A program made the translations under genes and the position numbers. A stretch of DNA of 64,000 nucleotides from Dehalococcoidia bacterium. Its GTDB lineage: Bacteria > Chloroflexota > Dehalococcoidia > Bin125. Position 1 is the stretch's first letter; each line of letters opens with the position of its first letter. Shown here in pieces: positions 46,255 to 57,358 of the stretch. The DNA lies in the NCBI GenBank assembly GCA_965242485.1, contig CBDESM010000003.1, positions 1,357,362-1,421,361 on the forward strand. The letters are read 5' to 3'. Below the pieces are notes generated by a model. The model saw only the letters and a program-made list of their open reading frames with translations, was not told the DNA's origin and ran no database searches.

Positions 46255-46358
46255 CGCCAGCCTCCTGCGCCCACAGGCTAGCGTCTCGGCGCGCGGAGTC
46301 CGCGAATGTCCTGCATAGAATGCCCGTGCCATGCTCGCGTCGCTGGAGGAACCGACTG

Positions 46359-47840
46359 ATGCCCCGCAATCTTGAAAATCGCACCATCTTCACTGGCGAC
46401 TGCCTCGACATCCTGCGCGGGGTCAACTCGGATTCGGTGGACCTGATCTACCTCGATCCGCCGTTCAACTCAGATCGGACCTACGGCAACGATTTCGATG
46501 ACCACTGGCAGCTCGACCGGTTGCCGGAGGCCGTGATGAAGCGGCTGCTGGAGACGATGGGGCGGGTGACGCAGGACAACGACGGGGCGGGCGCTGTGAT
46601 CAACGCCGCCGGCAAGGTGGCCGGCGAGTCGACTCAGGCGTACCTCACCTACATGTTCGAGCGCATCGCGGAGATGGCGCGGGTCTTGAAGCCGACGGGG
46701 AGCATCTACCTGCATTGCGACGACACGGAAGGCGCGTGGCTGAAGGCGGTGATGGATGCCGTGTTCGGGCGCAGCTGGTACCGCAACGAGATCGTCTGGC
46801 AGCGGACGAGTGCGCACAACGATGCCGGGGCATTCGGCCGCGTCGCCGATTACGTCCTGTTCTACAGCCGTTCGCCGATCAATGAAGCGGCCGTCGTCAC
46901 GCCGCTGAAGGATGAGCACGTGGCCGCGAAGTACCGGCATGACGATGGCGATGGGCGGGGCAGGTACCGCGCCGACGGCGACCTGACGGGGGCCGACCTC
47001 TCCGACGGCGAGAGCGGACGGCCGTGGGGCGGTTACGACCCGTCCGCGCGCGGGCGGCATTGGGCGGTGCCCAAGGCCCGCGGGCGCGGCGAGTATGCCG
47101 ACTGGATCGCGGAGAACATCATTCCGGGATATGAGAAGATCGAGGGCATCCACGCCCGTTTGAATGAGCTGGATGCGGCGGGTTTGATCTACAGGACGAG
47201 CAAGGGCACGCCCAACATCAAGCGCTATCTGAGCGCTTCAAAGGGGCAGGTGCCGACGGCGATCTGGACCGACATCCCGCCTGTGAACTCGCAGGCCGCA
47301 GAGAAGACCGGATATCGGACCCAGAAACCGCTCAAGCTGCTCGAACGAATCATCGCTGCCTCGTCAAACGAGGGCGACCTCGTGCTCGATCCGTTCTGCG
47401 GCTGCGCGACGGCGTGCGTCGCCGCCGAGCGCTTGGGCCGGGATTGGGTCGGCATCGACCAGAATGACGAAGCGCTCCAACAGGTCAAGATCCGGCTCGC
47501 CCAGCAGGAACCCGGAATCGCGCTCTGGGCGGAGAAGGTCGTGCACCGGACGCGCCCGCCCAAGCGGACGGATGAAGGCGACCTGACGCTTTCGGATCCG
47601 ATTCCGCTCTCGGTCAAGCGCGAGATGTACGAGGAGCAAAACGGACGCTGCAATGCGTGGACGATCGGCTGCGAAGAACGCCCTTCGATCTTCAACATTG
47701 AGGTGGATCACATCCGCCCCCGCAGCGCCGGCGGTGCGCACGAGCGGTCGAATCTCCAACTCCTCTGCGGCTGGTGCAACCGCTCCAAGCGTGACCGCAC
47801 GATGGATTACCTCGCACAGCGCATCGCCGAAAGAGGGTGA
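46359..47840 (+). CDS. DNA methyltransferase (PF01555 N4/N6, beta-class) fused to a C-terminal HNH endonuclease domain
   Basis: Start MPRNLENRTIF after GGAGGA. LIYLDPPFNSD (motif IV near the N-terminus). LVLDPFCGCATAC (motif I near the C-terminus, hence beta-class). C-terminal EVDHIRPRSAGGAHERSNLQLLCGWCNRSKRD is an HNH motif. Confidence 0.75.
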   Translation: MPRNLENRTIFTGDCLDILRGVNSDSVDLIYLDPPFNSDRTYGNDFDDHWQLDRLPEAVMKRLLETMGRVTQDNDGAGAVINAAGKVAGESTQAYLTYMFERIAEMARVLKPTGSIYLHCDDTEGAWLKAVMDAVFGRSWYRNEIVWQRTSAHNDAGAFGRVADYVLFYSRSPINEAAVVTPLKDEHVAAKYRHDDGDGRGRYRADGDLTGADLSDGESGRPWGGYDPSARGRHWAVPKARGRGEYADWIAENIIPGYEKIEGIHARLNELDAAGLIYRTSKGTPNIKRYLSASKGQVPTAIWTDIPPVNSQAAEKTGYRTQKPLKLLERIIAASSNEGDLVLDPFCGCATACVAAERLGRDWVGIDQNDEALQQVKIRLAQQEPGIALWAEKVVHRTRPPKRTDEGDLTLSDPIPLSVKREMYEEQNGRCNAWTIGCEERPSIFNIEVDHIRPRSAGGAHERSNLQLLCGWCNRSKRDRTMDYLAQRIAERG

Positions 47841-48128
47841 ATGATGGATTGGCAAGTGGTGCTCAGCACATTCGTCGGAGCGTTGACAGGATCACTGCCA
47901 GTGATTCTCTTGACTTGGTGGCTCACGATGTCAGCACGCAAGTCGGCTGCGAGATCGCAGCGGCGCATTGAAGGATCACTGAAAGGAATTAACGATGCTC
48001 TTCAAGAAATGGCATACTGGGGCGGCTTTGATGCAGAACGCCAAATTGAAGCAGACATGGAAGCAGCGCGTGCGAAGACTCGGGCGCATGAAGAAGGAGA
48101 GGATCCTGAGAATCGGGGAGACGCCTGA
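47841..48128 (+). CDS. Small hypothetical membrane protein (low-GC)
   Basis: 95 aa. TM segment VVLSTFVGALTGSLPVILLTWWLTM. Starts 1 nt after the MTase stop. About 50% GC. Confidence 0.35.
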   Translation: MMDWQVVLSTFVGALTGSLPVILLTWWLTMSARKSAARSQRRIEGSLKGINDALQEMAYWGGFDAERQIEADMEAARAKTRAHEEGEDPENRGDA

Positions 48129-48132
48129 TGAG

Positions 48133-48615
48133 ATGGTCGTCGTCTCTGATCGGCTGCATGATTTAGATTGGATCCCAGTCACGGCGACTAAATTTCCAAT
48201 CCGTTGGTGGATCGGAGCGGATGGCTCGCGGCGAATCGAGCCAGTGAAGGACGCCACACCTAGGAGTCTTCAATTAGCATTCGAGATCAATACGACCACT
48301 GAAATTCGCTTGCTTTGGCTCTCAGCTGGACGCTTCTTACATTTCGAACGCGCATACCACCAAAGTGATGGCCAGTGCGTGATCGAAAGAGGCTCCGGGA
48401 AGATCATATTCTATAACAGATACGCTATTGCGCGCGAAGAGGTGTTCAGTCGTGTACGCCTGATAATCGAATATCTGCCGAAAGAAGACTCATGGTCGGA
48501 AATTGCTTATGCTGAATTCTTGGAGCTTGATACATCCTCTCTTCGCGATGGCTGGAAACGCTGGTTCACAGAATGGATTCGCTTTGCCCGAGTCAGCATC
48601 TTCGGAGATCGGTAG
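48133..48615 (+). CDS. Hypothetical protein (low-GC)
   Basis: Start MVVVSDRL chosen 12 nt after GGGGAG and 5 nt after the previous stop. The longer 47995 start would overlap the small gene by 134 nt. W/Y/F/K/I-rich, genuine-looking composition. Confidence 0.35.
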   Translation: MVVVSDRLHDLDWIPVTATKFPIRWWIGADGSRRIEPVKDATPRSLQLAFEINTTTEIRLLWLSAGRFLHFERAYHQSDGQCVIERGSGKIIFYNRYAIAREEVFSRVRLIIEYLPKEDSWSEIAYAEFLELDTSSLRDGWKRWFTEWIRFARVSIFGDR

Positions 48616-48745
48616 GCTGCGCGGGCTGATCGTCGTTGCGAGGGGTTTGGGGAGATGCGCGAGATCAGCGGGGGCGGGGTGATTGCTGGCGGAGCGGCTT
48701 GCGGGGAGCCTTGTTGGGGGCGGGGCTTGCCGCTCCGCTTGTCGG

Positions 48746-49471
48746 CTATGTTGCGTCTGCGTCGGTCGCGTCTGCGTCGGTCGCGTCTGCATCGGTTGCG
48801 TCTGCATCGGTTGCGTCGGTCGTGCTTTCGGCGATTTCGGCGATTTGGCGGGAGCCGTCGCGCCGGCATTGCCAGCGACCGTCGTCGGTTCGCTGGACGT
48901 GGGGGCCGGACTCGAAGCGGTTGCCAACGTGCCGGTATTCGATGTTGAACCTCTGGTGGTAGCCGGGAATGTCCAGGCCGCCGACGAGAATTGTCAGGAT
49001 CACTGCAGGCCTGCCCGGCCTGCCTTCAATGGCCGGCCTGCCTGGGATACCCGGCCTGCCTGGGATACCCGGCATGGTCTCAACTATGTCAGTGTAGGGA
49101 TCGTCCGGCACCGGCGGCACCGGCGGCACCGGCGGCACCGGCGGCACCTCTGGCTGCGCCTCTATCGCCGGCTGCGCCGGTATGACCACCCTGGTGGTCC
49201 GCGTCTGCCAGCCCAAGCCGGTCTCGCAGGCAAGGTCGGCCAGCGCTTGGGCGACCCGGCCCCGCTCGGCCGGGGTGCTGCCGTGGACGGGCCAAGAGCT
49301 GTCTTCCGGCGTCACGTCGCTGTTGCATACGAAGATGCCGCCTTCGGAGACGCAGTGATCGTCGGCGGAGGCGGAGCCGCCCCAGAGTGCGCTGATTCCG
49401 GCGACCGCGGCCAGCGCGACGACGGCGGCGGCGAGCGGCATGGCTGCCTGCTTCATGGCGGTGAGGATCAT
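48746..49471 (-). CDS. Putative secreted low-complexity repeat protein ((PPV)4, collagen-like GIPGRP repeats, (DAT)n tail)
   Basis: Signal peptide MILTAMKQAAMPLAAAVVALAAVAGISALWGGSASA. The repeats are encoded by the DNA tandem repeats listed below. The upstream part of the listed ORF is the C-terminus of the IS remnant. Confidence 0.4.
   Translation of the reverse strand: MILTAMKQAAMPLAAAVVALAAVAGISALWGGSASADDHCVSEGGIFVCNSDVTPEDSSWPVHGSTPAERGRVAQALADLACETGLGWQTRTTRVVIPAQPAIEAQPEVPPVPPVPPVPPVPDDPYTDIVETMPGIPGRPGIPGRPAIEGRPGRPAVILTILVGGLDIPGYHQRFNIEYRHVGNRFESGPHVQRTDDGRWQCRRDGSRQIAEIAESTTDATDADATDADATDADATDADAT
48756..49150. repeat. Cluster of short tandem DNA repeats (15-mer gtctgcgtcggtcgc x~5; 21-mer ggcctgcctgggatacccggc x~2.5; 9-mer ggcaccggc x~5)
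   Basis: Directly visible in the sequence. In-frame with the minus-strand ORF, so copy-number change would alter protein length without a frameshift. Confidence 0.7.
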
Positions 49472-49479
49472 GTTGCTCT

Positions 49480-50480
49480 CCAACCTGAAGGTCAGCGCCT
49501 TCGACGCTCGGTCGGCCTCGTCAGCGCAGGGGCGACCAGCTCCCCGCGGACGCGCCTCGGGCGCGTTTCGGCTGCGCCCAGAATAGGCGATCCGCGACTG
49601 TGGGGCGCGGGACGGGCCGGAGGGGGCGGGCGGGGCGCTGGGCGAGGGCGGAAGTGGCGTACCGGCGGAAGATCGCAGAGGTGGAGAATCTGGATGCGAA
49701 GCAGGAGGAGATCGAGGTGGAACCGCGGCAGTTGGGAGCCCGCACCCGGCTGCACAGATCGTCCCGATCAGCCGTTCGGCCTTGCCGTTGGTGCGCGGGG
49801 TGCAGGACCGTGTGCGCAAGTGGCGCAGGTCCCAGCGCCCGGCACTCTTCGTGCCAGCGGTCGTTGAGGCAGGCGGGCCCGTTGTCGGTCATCACCTGCT
49901 CAACCGCGAGGCCGCGTTTGGCGCATCAGCGGACGGCGCGGCGCAGAAAGGCGACTGTGTGCTCGGCCCGCTTCGAGGGCGGCGCTTCGGCGCAGGCCAG
50001 CGCGAGCGATCGTCCACGGCGATGTGCGGGTATGCCAGCCGGTACCGGGGCAGAGCGTGCGCGGGTCGGCCAGGATCACCTTGTCGGGCTGGTAGAAGCG
50101 GTCCAGATTCTTGATGTCGACGTGCAGCAGCTCGCCTCACCCGCTCGCGTTCGTAGCGCAGCACCAGCGGCTTCGAAGCCAGTATCTGGCACGAGATGCC
50201 GAACCGCCGCCGCCCCTGCCGACGGTCGAGGCAGGTGCCGCCCAGCTCCACCAGCGGTGCACGGTCAAGCGGCCCGCTTCCTGCCCGCGGGCTGTCTCCG
50301 CGATGCTCGTCCTGCCTCGGCTAGGCGCACCGCGCGCAGCCTCGTCTCGATCGAATGGCGCATCTGCAGCCCCGCTCCGCCGCCACCAGCCAGCGGGACC
50401 CCTTGGGGGGGCATCTCGTTCAACACCAGTCTCGTAGGCGGTCCCCACCCAATCAGCTGTCCCGAACCTCTGTGGTTTTG
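49480..50480 (-). mobile_element. Degraded IS481-family transposase (pseudogene, at least 3 frameshifts and internal deletions)
   Basis: Minus-strand fragments in different frames: HTH-like MRHSIETRLRAVRLAEAG; LTVHRWW; GELLHVDIKNLDRF (catalytic DDE region); HIAVDDRSRW; MTDNGPAC...; PRTNGKAERLIGTI (C-terminal motif). No intact ORF. Confidence 0.65.
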
Positions 50481-50509
50481 AGGGCAGCACATCCCAGGCA
50501 GCGCTGACC

Positions 50510-51295
50510 TTACGACAACCGCGCTGCTAGCTTGCCGCGTTCCGACCACTTCGCCGGTTCGGCCACTTCCCTGATGAGGTTGTAATCGACATGCGTCCAG
50601 TAGGGCAGAGCGTCGTTGAAGAGAGCGATGCGGGGCAGATTGCTCACTCCATTGGATGAATGGGCGATGTCGCCGAACGCCGCGTATGCGGCATTGATGG
50701 CAGCGTCCGCTGACGGTTGATCGCGGCCGTTCACCCACTGGACCAACGCGGTGCGCTCTCCGACCACGTGAAAGTCAATAGTCCAGCGTCGTCCCGATCG
50801 GCCTTCGGCCTGGACTCCGGGGTTGAACGGGACCTGCAGCTCGGTGAGCCAGCTGCCCACCCGATCTTGACTGTCCAGCCGTGAATCTTCCTTCTTCATC
50901 CGGGGAGCACCTGTGAACCACAGGTCAGCGAGGCGGAGCGCAGTCTGCGCGACCGAGTAGACCGCAAAGGGCAATTCGCCAAGTGTCTGGCAGTCACGAC
51001 GCAGCCGGCCGCGGGAGATCGCGACTCCGCTGGTTCGCTGAATGTGGTCCAACAACTCGCTCTGTTTCTTCGTGAGCGCGTCAATGCCTCGCCGAGTCCA
51101 GAGCCAGCCCAAGGCTTCGCCGAAATCGGTGACCGCGTGCGCGTCGCCGTCACTGACGACATACACGTCAATCATCGTCCTGTCCGGATACAGGAGAGGC
51201 GTCGTGACGCGCACGGCTGAGTTGGGGAGTTCTTCGCAGCTGAAATGGCCATGAGCCTTTCCCGCGAGCGCACGGGAGATTTGCGTGGTGTTCAT
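50510..51295 (-). CDS. Uncharacterised ~260-aa protein, family 'A' copy 1 (array member)
   Basis: Paralogue of 51843..52637 and 52653..53444. Shared N-terminal motif TPLLYPD..IDV.V....G...V.DFG.A..WL and central L.FT.GV...GRSG..WT.DF. ATGA overlap with the upstream family-B gene. Confidence 0.55.
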   Translation of the reverse strand: MNTTQISRALAGKAHGHFSCEELPNSAVRVTTPLLYPDRTMIDVYVVSDGDAHAVTDFGEALGWLWTRRGIDALTKKQSELLDHIQRTSGVAISRGRLRRDCQTLGELPFAVYSVAQTALRLADLWFTGAPRMKKEDSRLDSQDRVGSWLTELQVPFNPGVQAEGRSGRRWTIDFHVVGERTALVQWVNGRDQPSADAAINAAYAAFGDIAHSSNGVSNLPRIALFNDALPYWTHVDYNLIREVAEPAKWSERGKLAARLS

Positions 51296-51768
51296 AGCAG
51301 CACCTCTCCCTGTACTTCGGGCATCATAAACGACCCGGTGTGGTGGATGCGGGCTTCAGCGCAGAACTGGAGCCATGCGAAGTCTGGCTCATTCCACGTC
51401 GCTGTGATGTCTTTCGGCTCAAATGCATACACTTCTTCACTTTTATCAGTCCAGATCTGCTTATGCGTTCCCGGATGTCTGCTGCCGTCCAAATTTCGGT
51501 GGTTTACCGCACCCATGTCCAAGCCATAGATGCGCCAGCGCCGCGCATAGATGAGATTGAAGGAGAGTTTGCTTGCGCTCGGGTTGTACCAGCCGTGCAT
51601 CTGCAGTTGCTCTGGGACATCTGCCAGAATCGGTGCCGTGAACATCGCCGCCCCAGCATGGCCAGGGTCTTGGCTCCACTCAATGTCGTCATTGATCTGT
51701 TTCTCGCTTTCGTAGATGAGTCTCCGGACCTCATCCCCTGATAGCTGTTTTGCCACTGCAAGCACCAA
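51292..51768 (-). CDS. Uncharacterised ~150-aa protein, family 'B' copy 2 (array member)
   Basis: Paralogue of 53441..53890. Shared GWYNP...KL.F.......IYGL.MG..H..LD......H...WT......Y.P.DI.A.W..P. Lower GC (~50%). Confidence 0.5.
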   Translation of the reverse strand: MVLAVAKQLSGDEVRRLIYESEKQINDDIEWSQDPGHAGAAMFTAPILADVPEQLQMHGWYNPSASKLSFNLIYARRWRIYGLDMGAVNHRNLDGSRHPGTHKQIWTDKSEEVYAFEPKDITATWNEPDFAWLQFCAEARIHHTGSFMMPEVQGEVLL

Positions 51769-51842
51769 TCTTTCGCACGCGCCGTCTGCATGCTAGCGCT
51801 GCTCAAGATGGCGTGTCAGGCGCCGGCGGCGCGGAAGCCGTG

Positions 51843-52637
51843 TTATGGGGAGCTGCTTCGGGGCGCGCGGAGGATGCGCTCGAACTCGTCCCGGTCGGTC
51901 CAGCGGGCGACGCGGGAGACGGTCGCCAAACGGTTGAAATCCTCGTCGGTCCATGGCGCGGAGTCGCAGTGGAACAGGGATACGAGCTGGCAGCGGGCCG
52001 GTTCTGGAAGCGCATCGCGGATGTCGCGGCAGCCGATGTAGGCGTGTTCGGCAATGCGGGGGGCGGAGTCGGGGTCCGAGGTTCGGAGATGGAAGACCAA
52101 GGAGTGCAACGGCGGCACGGCGACGTCGAAGTCGACCGTGTACTCGTGGCCTGATCGGCCCGCGACTCGGACGCCGGAGGTGAAGGCGATCTCGCGGTGG
52201 CGGAACCAGCGTTGGACATCGGATGAGGCCGTGCCGTCGGCTGGATGGCCGTCGATCCAGCGGAGGTCGGCGACGCGCGCTGCCGCTTGGGCGACGAACA
52301 TGATCGCGGAGCCGATTTCGCCGAGGCTGGCGCAGCGGTAGGAGATCGGGCCGCCATCGAATTCGAGCCGGTCGACCGGTGCGATGCCGGCGAGGTGCTG
52401 CTCCTGGTTCGGCGAGGGCCGGTCGTCCCAGAAGTGCATTTGGAGCCGCGCCATCGCTTCGCCGTAGTCGGTCGCGATGAACTCGCCGTCTTCGATGCAG
52501 ACGAACACGTCGATCACGTCGTTGTCGGGGTACAGCAGCGGCGTCGCGATGCGGACCGCTCCGTTTTCGGTGAGGGAGCACGGGTACTGCGGACCGAGCT
52601 GCCGCGCCGCCTCGTCGCGAAGCTCCGACGGGGTCAC
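51843..52637 (-). CDS. Uncharacterised ~260-aa protein, family 'A' copy 2
   Basis: 264 aa, MTPSELRDEAARQLGPQYPCSLTENGAVRIATPLLYPDNDVIDVFV...; lies 15 nt downstream of copy 3. Confidence 0.55.
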   Translation of the reverse strand: MTPSELRDEAARQLGPQYPCSLTENGAVRIATPLLYPDNDVIDVFVCIEDGEFIATDYGEAMARLQMHFWDDRPSPNQEQHLAGIAPVDRLEFDGGPISYRCASLGEIGSAIMFVAQAAARVADLRWIDGHPADGTASSDVQRWFRHREIAFTSGVRVAGRSGHEYTVDFDVAVPPLHSLVFHLRTSDPDSAPRIAEHAYIGCRDIRDALPEPARCQLVSLFHCDSAPWTDEDFNRLATVSRVARWTDRDEFERILRAPRSSSP

Positions 52638-52652
52638 GTCAGCGCTCCGAAT

Positions 52653-53444
52653 TCATGCGGCGGCTATGGGGCTGCGGAGCACCTCTTCGAGGTCCGAGCG
52701 GTCCGACCATCTCGCGATTCGGGAGACGTGTTCGACCAAGCCGTAGTGCTGGTCGCTCCAAATGTCGGCTTGATCGTCGAAGAGCGAAACGAGTTGCGGA
52801 ATAGGACCGCTCGCCCCGATTTGGCTGAGGTCGACGCAGGCCGCCAGCACATGCTCCGAGAGCCGGCGCGCGGCAGCCCGATCGCCGGTGCTGAGGAGGA
52901 ACACGTATGAAGGCGGAAGCGGCGGGGTCATGATGAAGTCGACCGTCCAAGTGGCGGATGATCGTCCACGGACCCGCTCTCTCTGGCGAAATGGAATCTC
53001 CCGGCTGCGAAGCCACTCGTCGACTTCTTCAGCTGTGGTGCGGAACGTCTGGCTACGGAACGTGAACCAGATGTCGGCCACGCGGAGGGCCGCCTGCCCG
53101 ACCTTGGCGACGGAATCGGCGAGGCTGCCCGGATCGTCGCATTGGAGGCTCAGATCGCCTTGATCCAGATCTACGCCGACCGTGTTCACGACATCGCGCA
53201 GCATCCGTTCTTGGCCGTCCGTGAGACGCCCGGTGCGCGACCTCGTTTCGAGCCAGCCGAGGGCGTCCCCGAAGTCCGAAACGACGATGCGGCCGTCCTG
53301 CTCGGTGACGAAGACGTCGATGCCGTCACCGTCGGGCAGCAGCAGCGGAGTTTGCACCCGGAGCGCGCCCCTCTCGGTCACGGTGCAGGCGTATTGCGCG
53401 GGCAGGCTGTCTCGGAGCCGCGCGCAGAGCTCGTTGGGAGTCAT
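52653..53444 (-). CDS. Uncharacterised ~260-aa protein, family 'A' copy 3
   Basis: 263 aa, MTPNELCARLRDSLPAQYACTVTERGALRVQTPLLLPDGDGIDVFV...; ATGA overlap with the upstream family-B gene. Confidence 0.55.
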   Translation of the reverse strand: MTPNELCARLRDSLPAQYACTVTERGALRVQTPLLLPDGDGIDVFVTEQDGRIVVSDFGDALGWLETRSRTGRLTDGQERMLRDVVNTVGVDLDQGDLSLQCDDPGSLADSVAKVGQAALRVADIWFTFRSQTFRTTAEEVDEWLRSREIPFRQRERVRGRSSATWTVDFIMTPPLPPSYVFLLSTGDRAAARRLSEHVLAACVDLSQIGASGPIPQLVSLFDDQADIWSDQHYGLVEHVSRIARWSDRSDLEEVLRSPIAAA

Positions 53445-53890
53445 GAGAATCCCTCCAACCGGATGGGCGGCGGGTAGAGCTGCCCGTCATGCAGCAAGTG
53501 CGATTCCCGTCGGAACTCCGACCAGACCTGCACGGGGTTCGACCAATCGGCCGAGATGTCGTCGGGCAGATAGCGATTCTGGTCGCGACGCTCTTCGGTC
53601 CAGTAGTGCTTGTGCGGACGGCGCGGATTCGCGATGTCCAGTTCGGGGTGGGTGATTCCCATGCACAGCCCGTAGATTCGCCCGCGGTCCGGTCGAAACA
53701 CGGTGAAGGTGAGTTTTTCCGTGCGCGGGTTGTACCAGCCCTCGAGGCAATGATCATTCGGGTCGGAGGTCTCGACATCGACGCGGAAGCGGAAGGTACG
53801 GGCGTTCCGACGATCGGGCGGCCAATGAATGTCGCCCTCGATGCGCATGGCGAGGTCGCGGAGGAACGCATCTACGTCGTCCTTGTTCAT
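53441..53890 (-). CDS. Uncharacterised ~150-aa protein, family 'B' copy 1
   Basis: Start MNKDDVDAFLRDLAMRIEGDIHW. The upstream part of the listed 275-aa ORF overlaps uppP in another frame and is discarded. Confidence 0.5.
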   Translation of the reverse strand: MNKDDVDAFLRDLAMRIEGDIHWPPDRRNARTFRFRVDVETSDPNDHCLEGWYNPRTEKLTFTVFRPDRGRIYGLCMGITHPELDIANPRRPHKHYWTEERRDQNRYLPDDISADWSNPVQVWSEFRRESHLLHDGQLYPPPIRLEGFS

Positions 53891-53967
53891 TGAGATCGCT
53901 GTCTGCTTTCCGCCTGCGGGGGCGTTTCGCTTGATGCGCCCCGGTCCCTGATCAGAATAACCGTCGG

Positions 53968-54843
53968 TCAGGCGCCGGCGGCGCGGGCGAGGAGGATGGC
54001 GGAGGCGGCTGCGAGGCAGTAGAGGGCGAAGGGGGCGAGGGTGGCGGCTTTGGCGATGTGGAGGAGGGCGCGGATGCCGAGGAGGGCGCTGAGGAAGGCG
54101 GCGGTTGCGCCGATGGCGAGGGCGGCGGGGTCGGCTGAGGCGCCGTCTCGGACGACGTCGTAGAGGGCGAGGAGGCCTGCGCCGGCGAGGGCGGGGATGG
54201 CGAGCCAGAAGGCGAATCTGGTGGCGGCTTCGCGGTTCGCGCCGAGGGAGATGGCGGCGGAGATGCACATGCCGGAGCGGGAGACGCCGGGGAGGACGGC
54301 GATGGCTTGGGCGACGCCGATGGCGGCTGCCTTGGCGAGCGAGAGGCCGGCGAGGCCGCCGGGGGAGGGCTCTGCGCCGGCGGCTCCATGGGCATCAGCA
54401 TCGGCAGGGGCGCCGGCGCCCGATCGCGTCGGAGCGAGGCGGCGTTCGGCGGCGATGAGGATGAGGCCGGTGGCGAGGAGGAAGGCGGCGGCGGGGGTCG
54501 GGCCGCGGAGCTGGTCTTCGAGCAGTTGCCAGGCGATTGCGCCGGCGGCGGCGATGGGGAGCGTGGCGGCGATGCCGAGGGCGAGCAGGCGTCGGGGCTG
54601 GACGCCGTCGACGGGGCGCGCGCGGGCGGAGCGGAGACCAGAGAGGAGGGCGATGATCTCGCGGCGGTAGGCGACGAGGATGGCGGCGAGAGCGCCGGCG
54701 TGGACGGCGGCGTCGAAGGCGAGGCCGGGGTCGTCCCAGCCGAAGAGCCAGCGGGCGATGGAGAGGTGTCCGCTGCTGGAGACGGGGAGGAATTCGGTCG
54801 CGCCTTGGATGATGCCGAGCAGGGCGGCTTGGAACAGGGGCAC
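53968..54843 (-). CDS. uppP: Undecaprenyl-diphosphate phosphatase
   Basis: ALLGIIQGATEFLPVSSSGHL and later GVSRSG motifs; about 8 TM helices. Start assumed at GTG (VPLFQAALLG); the exact start is uncertain. Confidence 0.7.
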   Translation of the reverse strand: MPLFQAALLGIIQGATEFLPVSSSGHLSIARWLFGWDDPGLAFDAAVHAGALAAILVAYRREIIALLSGLRSARARPVDGVQPRRLLALGIAATLPIAAAGAIAWQLLEDQLRGPTPAAAFLLATGLILIAAERRLAPTRSGAGAPADADAHGAAGAEPSPGGLAGLSLAKAAAIGVAQAIAVLPGVSRSGMCISAAISLGANREAATRFAFWLAIPALAGAGLLALYDVVRDGASADPAALAIGATAAFLSALLGIRALLHIAKAATLAPFALYCLAAASAILLARAAGA

Positions 54844-55132
54844 GCGGCTAGGCTTCCGCGTTCCGCGCGCGCGCCGCGCACTGTGCGGGAGGACTCGTCG
54901 AGGTGCACGGGCCGGCAGCCGGGCGGCTCGCACGGTCGCCCGCGACGTGCTGCGCGGAAGGATTCGTCAGGGTGCGCGGGCGGGTTGCCGTGGGATCTGG
55001 GCGGTCGCGCGGGGGGTGCTGTGCGAAGAGATTCGCCGGGGAGTGCGAGCGGGCGGGGGCGCGGGGGGGATAGAGTTGCGGGGATGCCGCGCGGCGGCGC
55101 GAGGGGAGGTTCAGGTGGAGATCACGGAGGTC

Positions 55133-55780
55133 ATGCGGACGGCGTTTTCGGCGCGGGAGTTCACGGATGATCCGGTGCCGGACGAGGTGCTGGAGCGCAT
55201 TTTGGAGCATGCGCGGTTCGCGCCGAGCGGGGGGAATCGCCAAGGCTGGCATGTGATCATCATCCGCGATCGTGCGGTGCGGGAGCGGCTGGCGGAGCTG
55301 GTGCAGGCGCCAGCGCGACGGTACATCGCGCAGGTGCAGGCGGGCGAGAGTCCGTGGAACTCGGTGCGGCCGTCGTCGGTGACGGAGGAGTCGGCGGCGG
55401 CGACGCGGGTGCCGGGCCGCCTGCACCAGCCGTACGTGGAAGCGCCGGCGCTGCTGGCGGTCTGCGTGGATCTGGGGGTGGTGGCGTCGACGGACAAGGA
55501 GCTGGATCGGGTGGGGGTGATTTCGGGCGCGTCGATCTACCCGTTCGTCTGGAACATCCTGCTGATGGCGCGGAACGAGGGGCTGGGCGGAACGCTGACG
55601 ACGCTGATCGCGGCGGCGGAGCCGGAGGCGCGGGAGCTGCTGCAGCTGCCCGAGGACTACGCGCTGTGCGCGCTGCTGCCGATCGGCAAGCCGGTGAAGC
55701 AGCTGACGAAGCTGCGGCGCGGCCCGGTCGGGGGGTTCGCGACGATCGACCGGTTCGACGGGGCGGCGTTCGGGGGCTAG
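55133..55780 (+). CDS. Nitroreductase family protein
   Basis: [44 protein letters not shown] is a classic nitroreductase N-terminus. An alternative GTG start lies at 55115. Confidence 0.7.
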
Positions 55781-56901
55781 CGGCCGGCGGCGATGAGGGC
55801 GTCGAGTTCCCGCTTGAGGCGCGGGAGGATTTCGTCGTAGGGGTAGTGGCCGAGCGATTCTTCGCCGCGCTTGAGGTTGACGGCGGCGGGGCCGCACCAG
55901 AGGCCGAGGTCGGCGTCGTCGGTTTCGCCGGGGCCGTTCACGCGGCAGCCCATGACGGCGATGGTGACGTCGTGGTCGGCGGCGTAGGCGCTCATCCGCT
56001 TCACGTCCTGGGCGAGTTCGACGAACTTTTCGTTTTCGACGCGGGAGCAGGAGGGGCAGGAGATGATGTTGAGGCCCTCGTCGAACTTGGGCGGGACGGA
56101 GCGGAAGCGGCCGGCGGCGATGTCGGCGAGGATTTCGCGGGCGGCATCGATCTCCATGCCCTTGTCGTCGAAGGGGACGGTGAGGGAGACGCGGACGGTG
56201 TCGCCGATGCCCTGGGAGATCAGCTGCTCGAAGGCGACGCGGGTCTTGATTATGCCGTCGGGCGGCATGCCGGCTTCGGTGACGCCGAGGTGGAGGGGGA
56301 CGTCGGGGCGTTCGGCGGCGAACTTGCGGTTGACTTCGACGACTTGCTTCCAGTCGGAGTCCTTGAGCGAGACGACGTAGCGGTCGAAGCCGAGGTCGTC
56401 GAGCAGGGCGCAGTGTTCGGCGGCGCTGGCGACGATGGCGGAGACGTGGTCGGTGGGGTAGCGCTCGAGCATGCGCGGGTCGATGGAGCCGCAGTTGACG
56501 CCGACGCGGATGGCGCAGTCGTGTTCGGCGGCGGTTTCGGCGATGAAGGCGACCTTGTCCTCGATGGACTTCTGCTTCTCGTGGTGGTGGAGATGGCCGG
56601 GGTTGTAGCGGATCTTGTCGACGTGGGGCGCGACGTCGGTGCAGAGGCGGTAGTTCTCCTGGAGGTCGACGGAGAGCGGGGCGGAGGTCTGCCCGCGGAC
56701 CCGGGCGAGGGCTTCGACGTCCCTCTTGGAGTCGACGGCGACGCGGACGAGGTCTGCGCCTGCGGCTTCGAGCAGGCGGACCTGGCGGACGGTGGCTTCG
56801 ACGTCTTGGGTGCGGGTGGCGGCCATGGATTGGACGGCGATGGGCGCGCCGGCGCCGATCTGGACGTCGCGGACTTTCACGGATCGCGTGGGGTTGCGCA
56901 T
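55777..56901 (-). CDS. ispG: 4-hydroxy-3-methylbut-2-en-1-yl diphosphate synthase (flavodoxin)
   Basis: Start [26 protein letters not shown] with GGAGGA RBS. Conserved GcpE C-terminal Cys cluster CPSCSR...GCRVNGPGE. Confidence 0.9.
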
Positions 56902-56953
56902 GGGCCGGTCCTCCGTCCACAGTTTCGCACGCCGGCGGGCATACGATTCGAGG

Positions 56954-57358
56954 GTGCTGTTCAACGCGTTGTTCCTGTTCTTGTTTTTCGCGGCTTGGTG
57001 CGTGCTGGGGGTGCTGGCTTGGATTCCGCTGAGCCTGCGGCGGGGGGCGAAGGGGGCGCTGTTCGCGCTGCCGTTCGCGCTGGCGGGCGGCGCGGCGGGC
57101 GGTGCGGCGGTGCCGCTGCTGGGGCTGGATACGGGGGCCGGGATCGGGGCGAGCATGATCGCCGCGGCGTGCGGGGGGGCGCTGTTGTGCTGGCTGGGCT
57201 ACCGGGCTTGGGACGCGCTGGATTTGGGCGGGCGGTTCGCGGGCTGGGCGCGCGGGACGGGGCGCGGGGCCGGATGGGGCGGGGTATCGTCGCGGCAGTT
57301 TGATCGCGCTGATCACGGAAGCGAACCGGGCGGGCGCGAAGGGGAAAGGCGAGGCTGA
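56954..57358 (+). CDS. Possible small membrane protein translationally coupled to proS (TGATG overlap)
   Basis: GTG start. Hydrophobic segments ([24 protein letters not shown]; [24 protein letters not shown]) followed by a G/R-rich tail. Could be a non-coding leader instead. Confidence 0.25.

Follow-up and report, generated by a model that had tools for sequence, protein, structure and literature searches.

A total of 145 phage defence candidates (PDCs) have been derived from genes embedded in BREX, DISARM and type I restriction-modification (RM) systems and are described by their authors as untested, and the supplement of that work enters PDC-M24 among them as a cassette of two families (Payne et al. 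2024, bioRxiv 10.1101/2024.01.29.577857). DS-6/HipAD is a validated two-gene defence system, in which a DUF1829 protein is predicted to bind both its partner and DNA (DefensePredictor, PMC13092281). Here, we describe a five-gene array at 50510-53890 of a 64,000-nucleotide (nt) stretch of a Dehalococcoidia bacterium genome (GenBank assembly GCA_965242485.1, contig CBDESM010000003.1, positions 1,357,362 to 1,421,361 of the forward strand), hereafter the window. The array consists of two paralogous families, B and A, arranged as B1-A3, A2, B2-A1. Its genes almost certainly belong to PDC-M24, and the region carries this cassette twice in full and once in part. The initial annotation of this DNA had read five minus-strand genes with an ATGA overlap between the stop of each B gene and the start of the following A gene, and both the open reading frames (ORFs) and the two junctions (B1/A3 and B2/A1) are borne out. 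Its lettering is kept here, although it is the reverse of that in PADLOC, so that B is PDC-M24A and A is PDC-M24B. The genes are as follows (lengths in amino acids, aa).

50510-51295, minus strand: A1, 261 aa, DUF1828 and endonuclease-fold protein, PDC-M24B, partner of B2.
51292-51768, minus strand: B2, 158 aa from a TTG start, DUF6978, PDC-M24A, leads the inserted pair.
51843-52637, minus strand: A2, 264 aa, an additional A copy without a B of its own.
52653-53444, minus strand: A3, 263 aa, DUF1828 N-domain and restriction-endonuclease-fold C-domain, PDC-M24B, partner of B1.
53441-53890, minus strand: B1, 149 aa, ATG at 53890, DUF6978, PDC-M24A, leads the inherited pair.

Both families are identified by PADLOC over most or all of their length. 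B1 and B2 match PDC-M24A (PDLC04533) nearly full length with E values of 1.1e-36 and 6.2e-36, respectively, and A3, A2 and A1 match PDC-M24B (PDLC04540) full length with E values of 1.1e-71, 1.3e-45 and 6e-46. The PDC-M24 order rule, by which the PDC-M24A gene comes first and lies adjacent to its partner on one strand, describes both B1/A3 and B2/A1. In Pfam, B2 exceeds the gathering cut-off of DUF6978 (PF22398; 34.2 bits against 29.6 bits); B1 aligns across positions 3-131 of the same profile at 24.8 bits, under the cut-off, and clusters with homologues annotated as DUF6978. All three A proteins cover the entire 91-position profile of DUF1828 (PF08861) above its cut-off of 22 bits (39.8 bits for A3, 27.3 for A1 and 22.4 for A2), so that what had been a guess at DUF1828 for the A N-terminus proves right. 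The C-terminal half of A matches DUF1829 in 5 of 78 family members, with a best E value of 3.4e-5. The view that the two families are novel and cannot be placed is thus wrong, because both are in Pfam (DUF6978, and DUF1828 with a weak DUF1829) and the pair is catalogued as PDC-M24. NCBIfam holds no family for any of the five proteins, and PHROGs offers families of unknown function only, phrog_5059 and phrog_1960 matching the A proteins and phrog_2017 weakly matching B2. An exact look-up of the A1 and A2 sequences returned no record. The motifs quoted for A and B in the initial annotation are present and coincide with family-wide invariant columns.

The copies are divergent. A3 is 39% identical to A2 (E 1e-58) and 32% identical to A1 (E 4e-37), A2 and A1 are 31% identical (E 8e-32), and B1 and B2 are also 31% identical (E 3e-26); by these E values, paralogy among the A proteins and between the B proteins is well above chance. 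A2 starts with GTG 15 nt past the A3 stop and has its own GGAG 7 nt upstream, and a GTG four codons downstream of the TTG is an equally possible start for B2 (154 aa). The array genes are coding, as shown by the strong profile matches, a GC content at third codon positions above their overall GC content, and ratios of non-synonymous to synonymous substitution (dN/dS) of 0.15-0.45 against orthologues. The locally lower GC content reported before is confirmed for B2, at 54.5% against a window mean of 68.6%, but the earlier figure of about 50% for this gene is wrong; the other four genes range from 62 to 68%.

The pairing of B with A is a property of the family. A scan with a B profile of contigs from 185,579 species genomes, one per species, gave 316 relatives, and the best 80 loci were examined. 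These come from Chloroflexota, Myxococcota, Planctomycetota, Cyanobacteria, Acidobacteriota, Proteobacteria and further phyla. In 78 of the 80, the gene directly after B, on its strand, is A; one of the two exceptions lies at a contig edge, and the other (locus L001) has a truncated A. The genes overlap by 4 nt at 59 of 75 junctions, 54 of them as ATGA, and by 1 nt at 12 of 75, so that the proposal of a tightly coupled two-gene module holds well beyond the window. Pairwise distances of B and of A are correlated (Mantel r 0.76, a value reached in 0 of 2000 permutations), which is co-inheritance and would be compatible with an interaction between the two proteins. At 50% identity, the B family amounts to 520 clusters out of 1.84 billion representatives; essentially all of the best 150 of these are fragments or short proteins of about 150 aa that stand alone. 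The closest family members are mostly from Chloroflexota metagenome-assembled genomes (MAGs), and the window pairs are outliers in the family, with about 40% identity in B and 35-48% in A to the nearest members from other phyla. Further A copies without a B occur in the window, L030 and L067. At L030 (7995-13183), one B gene, two A genes of different subfamilies (PDLC04540 and PDLC04539, 28% identical) and hsdR lie on one strand with gene ends that overlap or almost do so; a true tandem B-A-A is found at this locus only among the 80.

The neighbourhood of the relatives points to defence. Type I restriction subunits are the commonest of the 133 nearest neighbours (two genes on each side) at the first 38 loci, with six HsdR, three to four MTase_I and three specificity subunits, followed by AbiEi, Schlafen/AlbA_2 and nucleotidyltransferase-type toxin-antitoxin (TA) genes. 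An HsdR-like gene lies within 5 kb on the same strand at 13 of 80 loci. Because type I RM genes are rare in a genome, such a frequency is probably an enrichment. By Pfam, the order is hsdM, hsdS, B, A, hsdR at L002, L015, L020 and L063, and the A stop overlaps the hsdR start in several cases; some other loci adjoin Eco57I/MmeI-type methylases, an AAA_13 ATPase or an nSTAND NTPase. The suggestion that the array is accessory and associated with defence therefore gains from both the strong PADLOC matches and the relatives embedded in type I RM operons. The resemblance to PDC-M24 extends to both families, their order, their adjacency and the embedding of relatives in type I RM operons, as the candidate was defined. 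In contrast, the window copies stand alone outside any RM system and are stacked as B-A, A, B-A.

The slot between hsdS and hsdR that many B-A relatives occupy is shared with the PrrC/RloC anticodon nucleases, and we take it to be the position of prrC in EcoprrI. By analogy with EcoprrI-PrrC, an attack on the RM enzyme could set free an effector that is otherwise latent. However, PrrC combines an ABC-ATPase with a HEPN-type RNase, whereas B-A is two proteins with no relation to it in sequence or fold, and no type I RM system accompanies the window copies. DS-6/HipAD is comparable in that DS-6B (DUF3037 and DUF1829) shares the DUF1829-type domain that is weakly detectable in the A C-domain (PMC13092281), although its partner is a HipA kinase rather than DUF6978 and its N-domain is DUF3037 rather than DUF1828. 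Can2/Card1 and NucC, which are restriction-endonuclease-fold effectors activated by a signal, differ from A, whose sensor domain is YbjN/chaperone-like and not CARF and which has no canonical catalytic lysine, and the array has no recognisable cyclase or other signal-producing enzyme.

The array is a stack of divergent cassettes with different histories. The flanks are 97-98% identical between the window and a relative contig, L081, which has the order uppP-B1-A3-A2', directly followed by the counterpart of the window gene at about 48746-49474. Blastn aligns window 49154-49592 with L081 12536-12096 and window 51819-51916 with L081 12089-11992, with nothing between, and three features of the window fall within or make up the missing part.

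49593-51824: 2.2-kb segment of the window that L081 lacks, holding B2, A1 and a transposase remnant.
49760-50365, minus strand: IS481-type transposase remnant, a shortened pseudogene with several frameshifts.
51790-51819, minus strand: promoter-like site CTGACA-18-TAGCAT, directly upstream of B2 and within the inserted segment.

Because this 2.2-kb segment is missing from such a close relative, B2-A1 is an insertion. No target-site duplication is evident by eye at its junctions. The inserted pair has a lower GC content and its own promoter-like site, which is the sole sigma-70-like match in 49400-54100, where shuffles expect 0.4, and is a consensus match only. In a metagenome scan, no sequence exceeded 40% identity to A1 over most of the protein. 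The idea that triplication of A reflects diversifying duplication fails on these grounds: the copies are only 31-39% identical and B2-A1 came with an insertion that is seen directly, and therefore a stack of divergent cassettes, not a recent local duplication of A, accounts for the array.

B1-A3, on the other hand, has been inherited vertically in this lineage, under purifying selection, and keeps a fixed place downstream of uppP. The synteny uppP-B-A runs across L081-L089, with uppP belonging to Pfam BacA in the syntenic relatives; L082-L084 and L086-L089 carry a single pair at the same site followed by variable DNA, and the B1 orthologues beside uppP are 72-93% identical. Synonymous divergence (dS) from L082/L084 is 0.7-1.2 for B1 and A3 (52653-53890) and 0.18-0.22 for ispG and uppP (53968-57156), an excess of up to about fivefold in the cassette genes. 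This suggests that the cassette alleles are older than their flanks, having been exchanged in place; a looser constraint on codons may play a part. A2 is present in the window and L081 and absent from L082-L084, L086 and L088. The window and L081 alleles of A2 are 44% identical, with the first 30 or so and the last 25 or so residues nearly identical and the middle unalignable at the DNA level. By this alignment pattern, A2 is a mosaic that arose by recombination within the gene, its middle swapped between strains.

The A protein is composed of two domains. The N-domain has a YbjN/type-III-secretion-chaperone-like fold with an invariant acidic cluster (T32, P37, D38, D43, D57 and G59). YbjN, DUF2170 and type III secretion chaperones differ in being single-domain proteins, and to our knowledge the invariant TPxxYPD...D...DxG motif of DUF1828 is not a feature of them. 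Residues 137-257 have a restriction-endonuclease fold that matches BstEII (10.7), PspGI (10.0), Bax1 (9.8) and Can2 (9.4), as well as BsoBI, Cfr10I, NgoMIV, Vsr, NucS and NucC, and the alpha-beta-beta-beta-alpha-beta core of PD-(D/E)xK-type nucleases is present. D169 of the WTVDF motif, in the second core strand, is nearly invariant. Together with the other conserved polar residues of this domain (K/R161, S162, R189, D205 and D223/D224), it could form a non-canonical catalytic site, as judged from conservation. A2 retains every family-invariant residue. A search of the PDB with the A family profile gave only a 36-residue match at chance level to a CBS-domain protein (E 0.03).

The B protein is without a recognisable solved relative. 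The AlphaFold 2 model of B1, with a mean predicted local distance difference test score (pLDDT) of 90.2, consists of a helix, an antiparallel sheet of seven to eight strands, a helix and a strand, and found no match in a viral structure library; the PDB search with the B family profile gave nothing. Among 98 representatives of the wide B family (clustered at 50%), conservation is highest at H93 (97%), H81 (93%) and R71 (89%), and in a closer set of 120 sequences K59, K94 and E129 are invariant. These residues lie on the antiparallel sheet behind the N-terminal helix of the model, and their pattern looks like that of an active or ligand site. An HNH or a PD-(D/E)xK nuclease was considered for B and rejected, as no such fold match was obtained.

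A defence role of the module is probable, and the best overall explanation, to which we give an even chance, is a defence module with a nuclease-fold A effector regulated by B. B and A would be made together from one translationally coupled message and would act as a complex. A would be the effector, its N-domain binding B or a trigger and its restriction-endonuclease-fold C-domain binding, and probably cutting, nucleic acid. B, small, of unrecognised fold and bearing two near-invariant histidines and an arginine, would control or activate A. The module would guard against phages or other invading DNA, either alone, as in the window, or as an additional line of defence within type I RM operons, where it would take the slot of prrC in EcoprrI, and further or swapped A copies would broaden recognition. 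The assignment of roles within the module, with A as a nuclease effector and B as its regulator, is more tentative, somewhat short of an even chance.

Several observations weigh against this explanation. The (D/E)xK motif is absent from the third strand of A (SxVFLLSTG) in the three window copies, in the family consensus and in the second subfamily represented by the L030 copy. The lysine-less C-domain may therefore only bind DNA, by analogy with what has been proposed for DS-6B. L001 (3838-4363, on a Chloroflexota MAG contig) has an intact B, 95% identical to that of L005, and retains only the first 24 codons of A; B can thus exist alone in a natural B-only state. B1-A3 is stably inherited rather than mobile, and many homologous loci, the window included, lie among housekeeping genes. 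Cultured phage records gave no tblastn match to A3, and plasmid records gave a single weak one, at 24% identity in Haloarcula pNYT2 with uninformative neighbours. A literature search (PDC-M24, DUF6978, DUF1828 and DUF1829) gave no main-text mention of PDC-M24, with the DUF names appearing in passing only, and no functional study of the DUF6978-DUF1828/DUF1829 pair.

The main alternative, which we consider clearly less likely, is that the roles of the two proteins are reversed. B would then be the catalytic effector, a small RNase- or phosphodiesterase-like enzyme that needs no metal and employs His81, His93 and Lys94/Arg71. A would regulate it, its chaperone-like N-domain keeping hold of B and its DNA-binding endonuclease-fold domain serving as an anchor or sensor. 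The absence of the canonical nuclease lysine from A, the very high conservation of H93, H81 and R71 in B, the invariance of K59, K94 and E129, and the gathering of these residues on one sheet all speak for such an assignment. The A copies without a B in the window, L030 and L067 fit orphan regulators or immunity genes better than orphan toxins, and the DUF1829-containing DS-6B has been proposed as an antitoxin-like, DNA-binding partner (PMC13092281). However, the intact B of L001 beside a deleted A is unexpected if B is toxic without A, and the His-His-Lys reading is drawn from conservation only.

It is also conceivable, at rather long odds, that PDC-M24 is an immune module built of parts without a characterised counterpart. 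In this case, B would be a new-fold histidine-pair enzyme, and A an exchangeable specificity element that works with B and joins a chaperone-like sensor to an endonuclease fold lacking the lysine. One B might serve several divergent A proteins, namely A3 and A2 here and the two A subfamilies at L030, and strains might swap the middle of A via its conserved ends, in the manner of HsdS variation in type I RM systems.

Two explanations without an anti-phage role are less likely than a defence module. The first is a selfish, toxin-antitoxin-like addiction module that stabilises its own DNA, RM operons included. Two small translationally coupled genes, a patchy distribution across phyla, the arrival of B2-A1 beside a transposase remnant, and neighbours such as AbiEi and nucleotidyltransferase-type TA genes would all suit it. 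However, neither Pfam nor NCBIfam nor PADLOC matches any array protein to a known TA family, and single-gene remnants of both kinds persist, B only at L001 and A without B as A2 and the second L030 copy. B1-A3 has moreover been kept at one site under purifying selection among relatives down to about 70% identity, longer than expected of a purely selfish element, which leaves this explanation improbable. The second, a housekeeping role in DNA repair or recombination or one linked to the envelope, is very unlikely: the conserved uppP-B-A synteny in the lineage, the purifying selection and the FemAB, PBP or LPG-synthase genes that adjoin the pair at some other loci are outweighed by the rarity and patchy distribution of the family, its apparently strong over-representation beside RM genes, a copy number that differs between near-identical strains, and array proteins in which no signal peptide or membrane segment is evident when their sequences are read by eye.

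The surroundings of the array agree with the initial annotation, which had placed uppP upstream and a DNA methyltransferase (MTase)-HNH gene and an IS481 remnant nearby. The motifs GELLHVDIKNL, HIAVDDRSR, MTDNGPAC and TPRTNGKAERLI of the transposase remnant lie in three different frames, and the spliced frames match Pfam rve with an E value of 9.5e-6 at 26.2 bits, under the cut-off of 32.6. The remnant is presumed to belong to IS481 from family-typical motifs read by eye. The MTase-HNH gene lies 2.7 kb from the array.

46320-47840, plus strand: single-chain DNA methylase-HNH fusion (N6_N4_Mtase E 2e-44, HNH E 1e-9; type II/III MTase in PADLOC).

Beside it, at 47995-48615 on the plus strand, is a 206-aa ORF with no assigned family; L082, L083 and L088 have a 207-aa gene in the corresponding position next to their MTase-HNH gene, and L081 has lost most of the region corresponding to window 46530-48648. 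The sole Rfam match in the window lies at 49507-49573 on the minus strand, about 20 nt from the insertion junction, and is a type II hammerhead ribozyme matched at full length (RF02276, 46.4 bits, above the cut-off of 37). It also occurs at L081 12114-12180 and L086 7972-8039. In all three, it lies directly upstream of the same gene of 216-231 aa, on the strand of the B-A array, and L082, L084 and L088 have neither the gene nor the ribozyme. The window gene downstream of the ribozyme (about 48746-49474, minus strand) encodes a signal-peptide-like N-terminus and proline-rich and ATDAD tandem repeats; its repeat region aligns poorly with L081, with gaps at 49043-49154, and its product has no Pfam or PADLOC family.

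The finding is real and not new in kind, as both families are already in Pfam and in a catalogue of defence candidates. New here are the assigned folds, the residues singled out as candidates, the series of strains and the evidence for a swapped second gene. That PDC-M24 relatives lie between hsdS and hsdR of type I RM operons is confirmed independently. Near-identical strains carry one pair, one pair with an extra A, or two pairs with an extra A, which constitutes a natural series, and confident structure models offer D169, D205 and D223/224 of A and R71, H81 and H93 of B as candidate residues. If the module does defend its host, its mechanism would be built on a fold without a solved relative.

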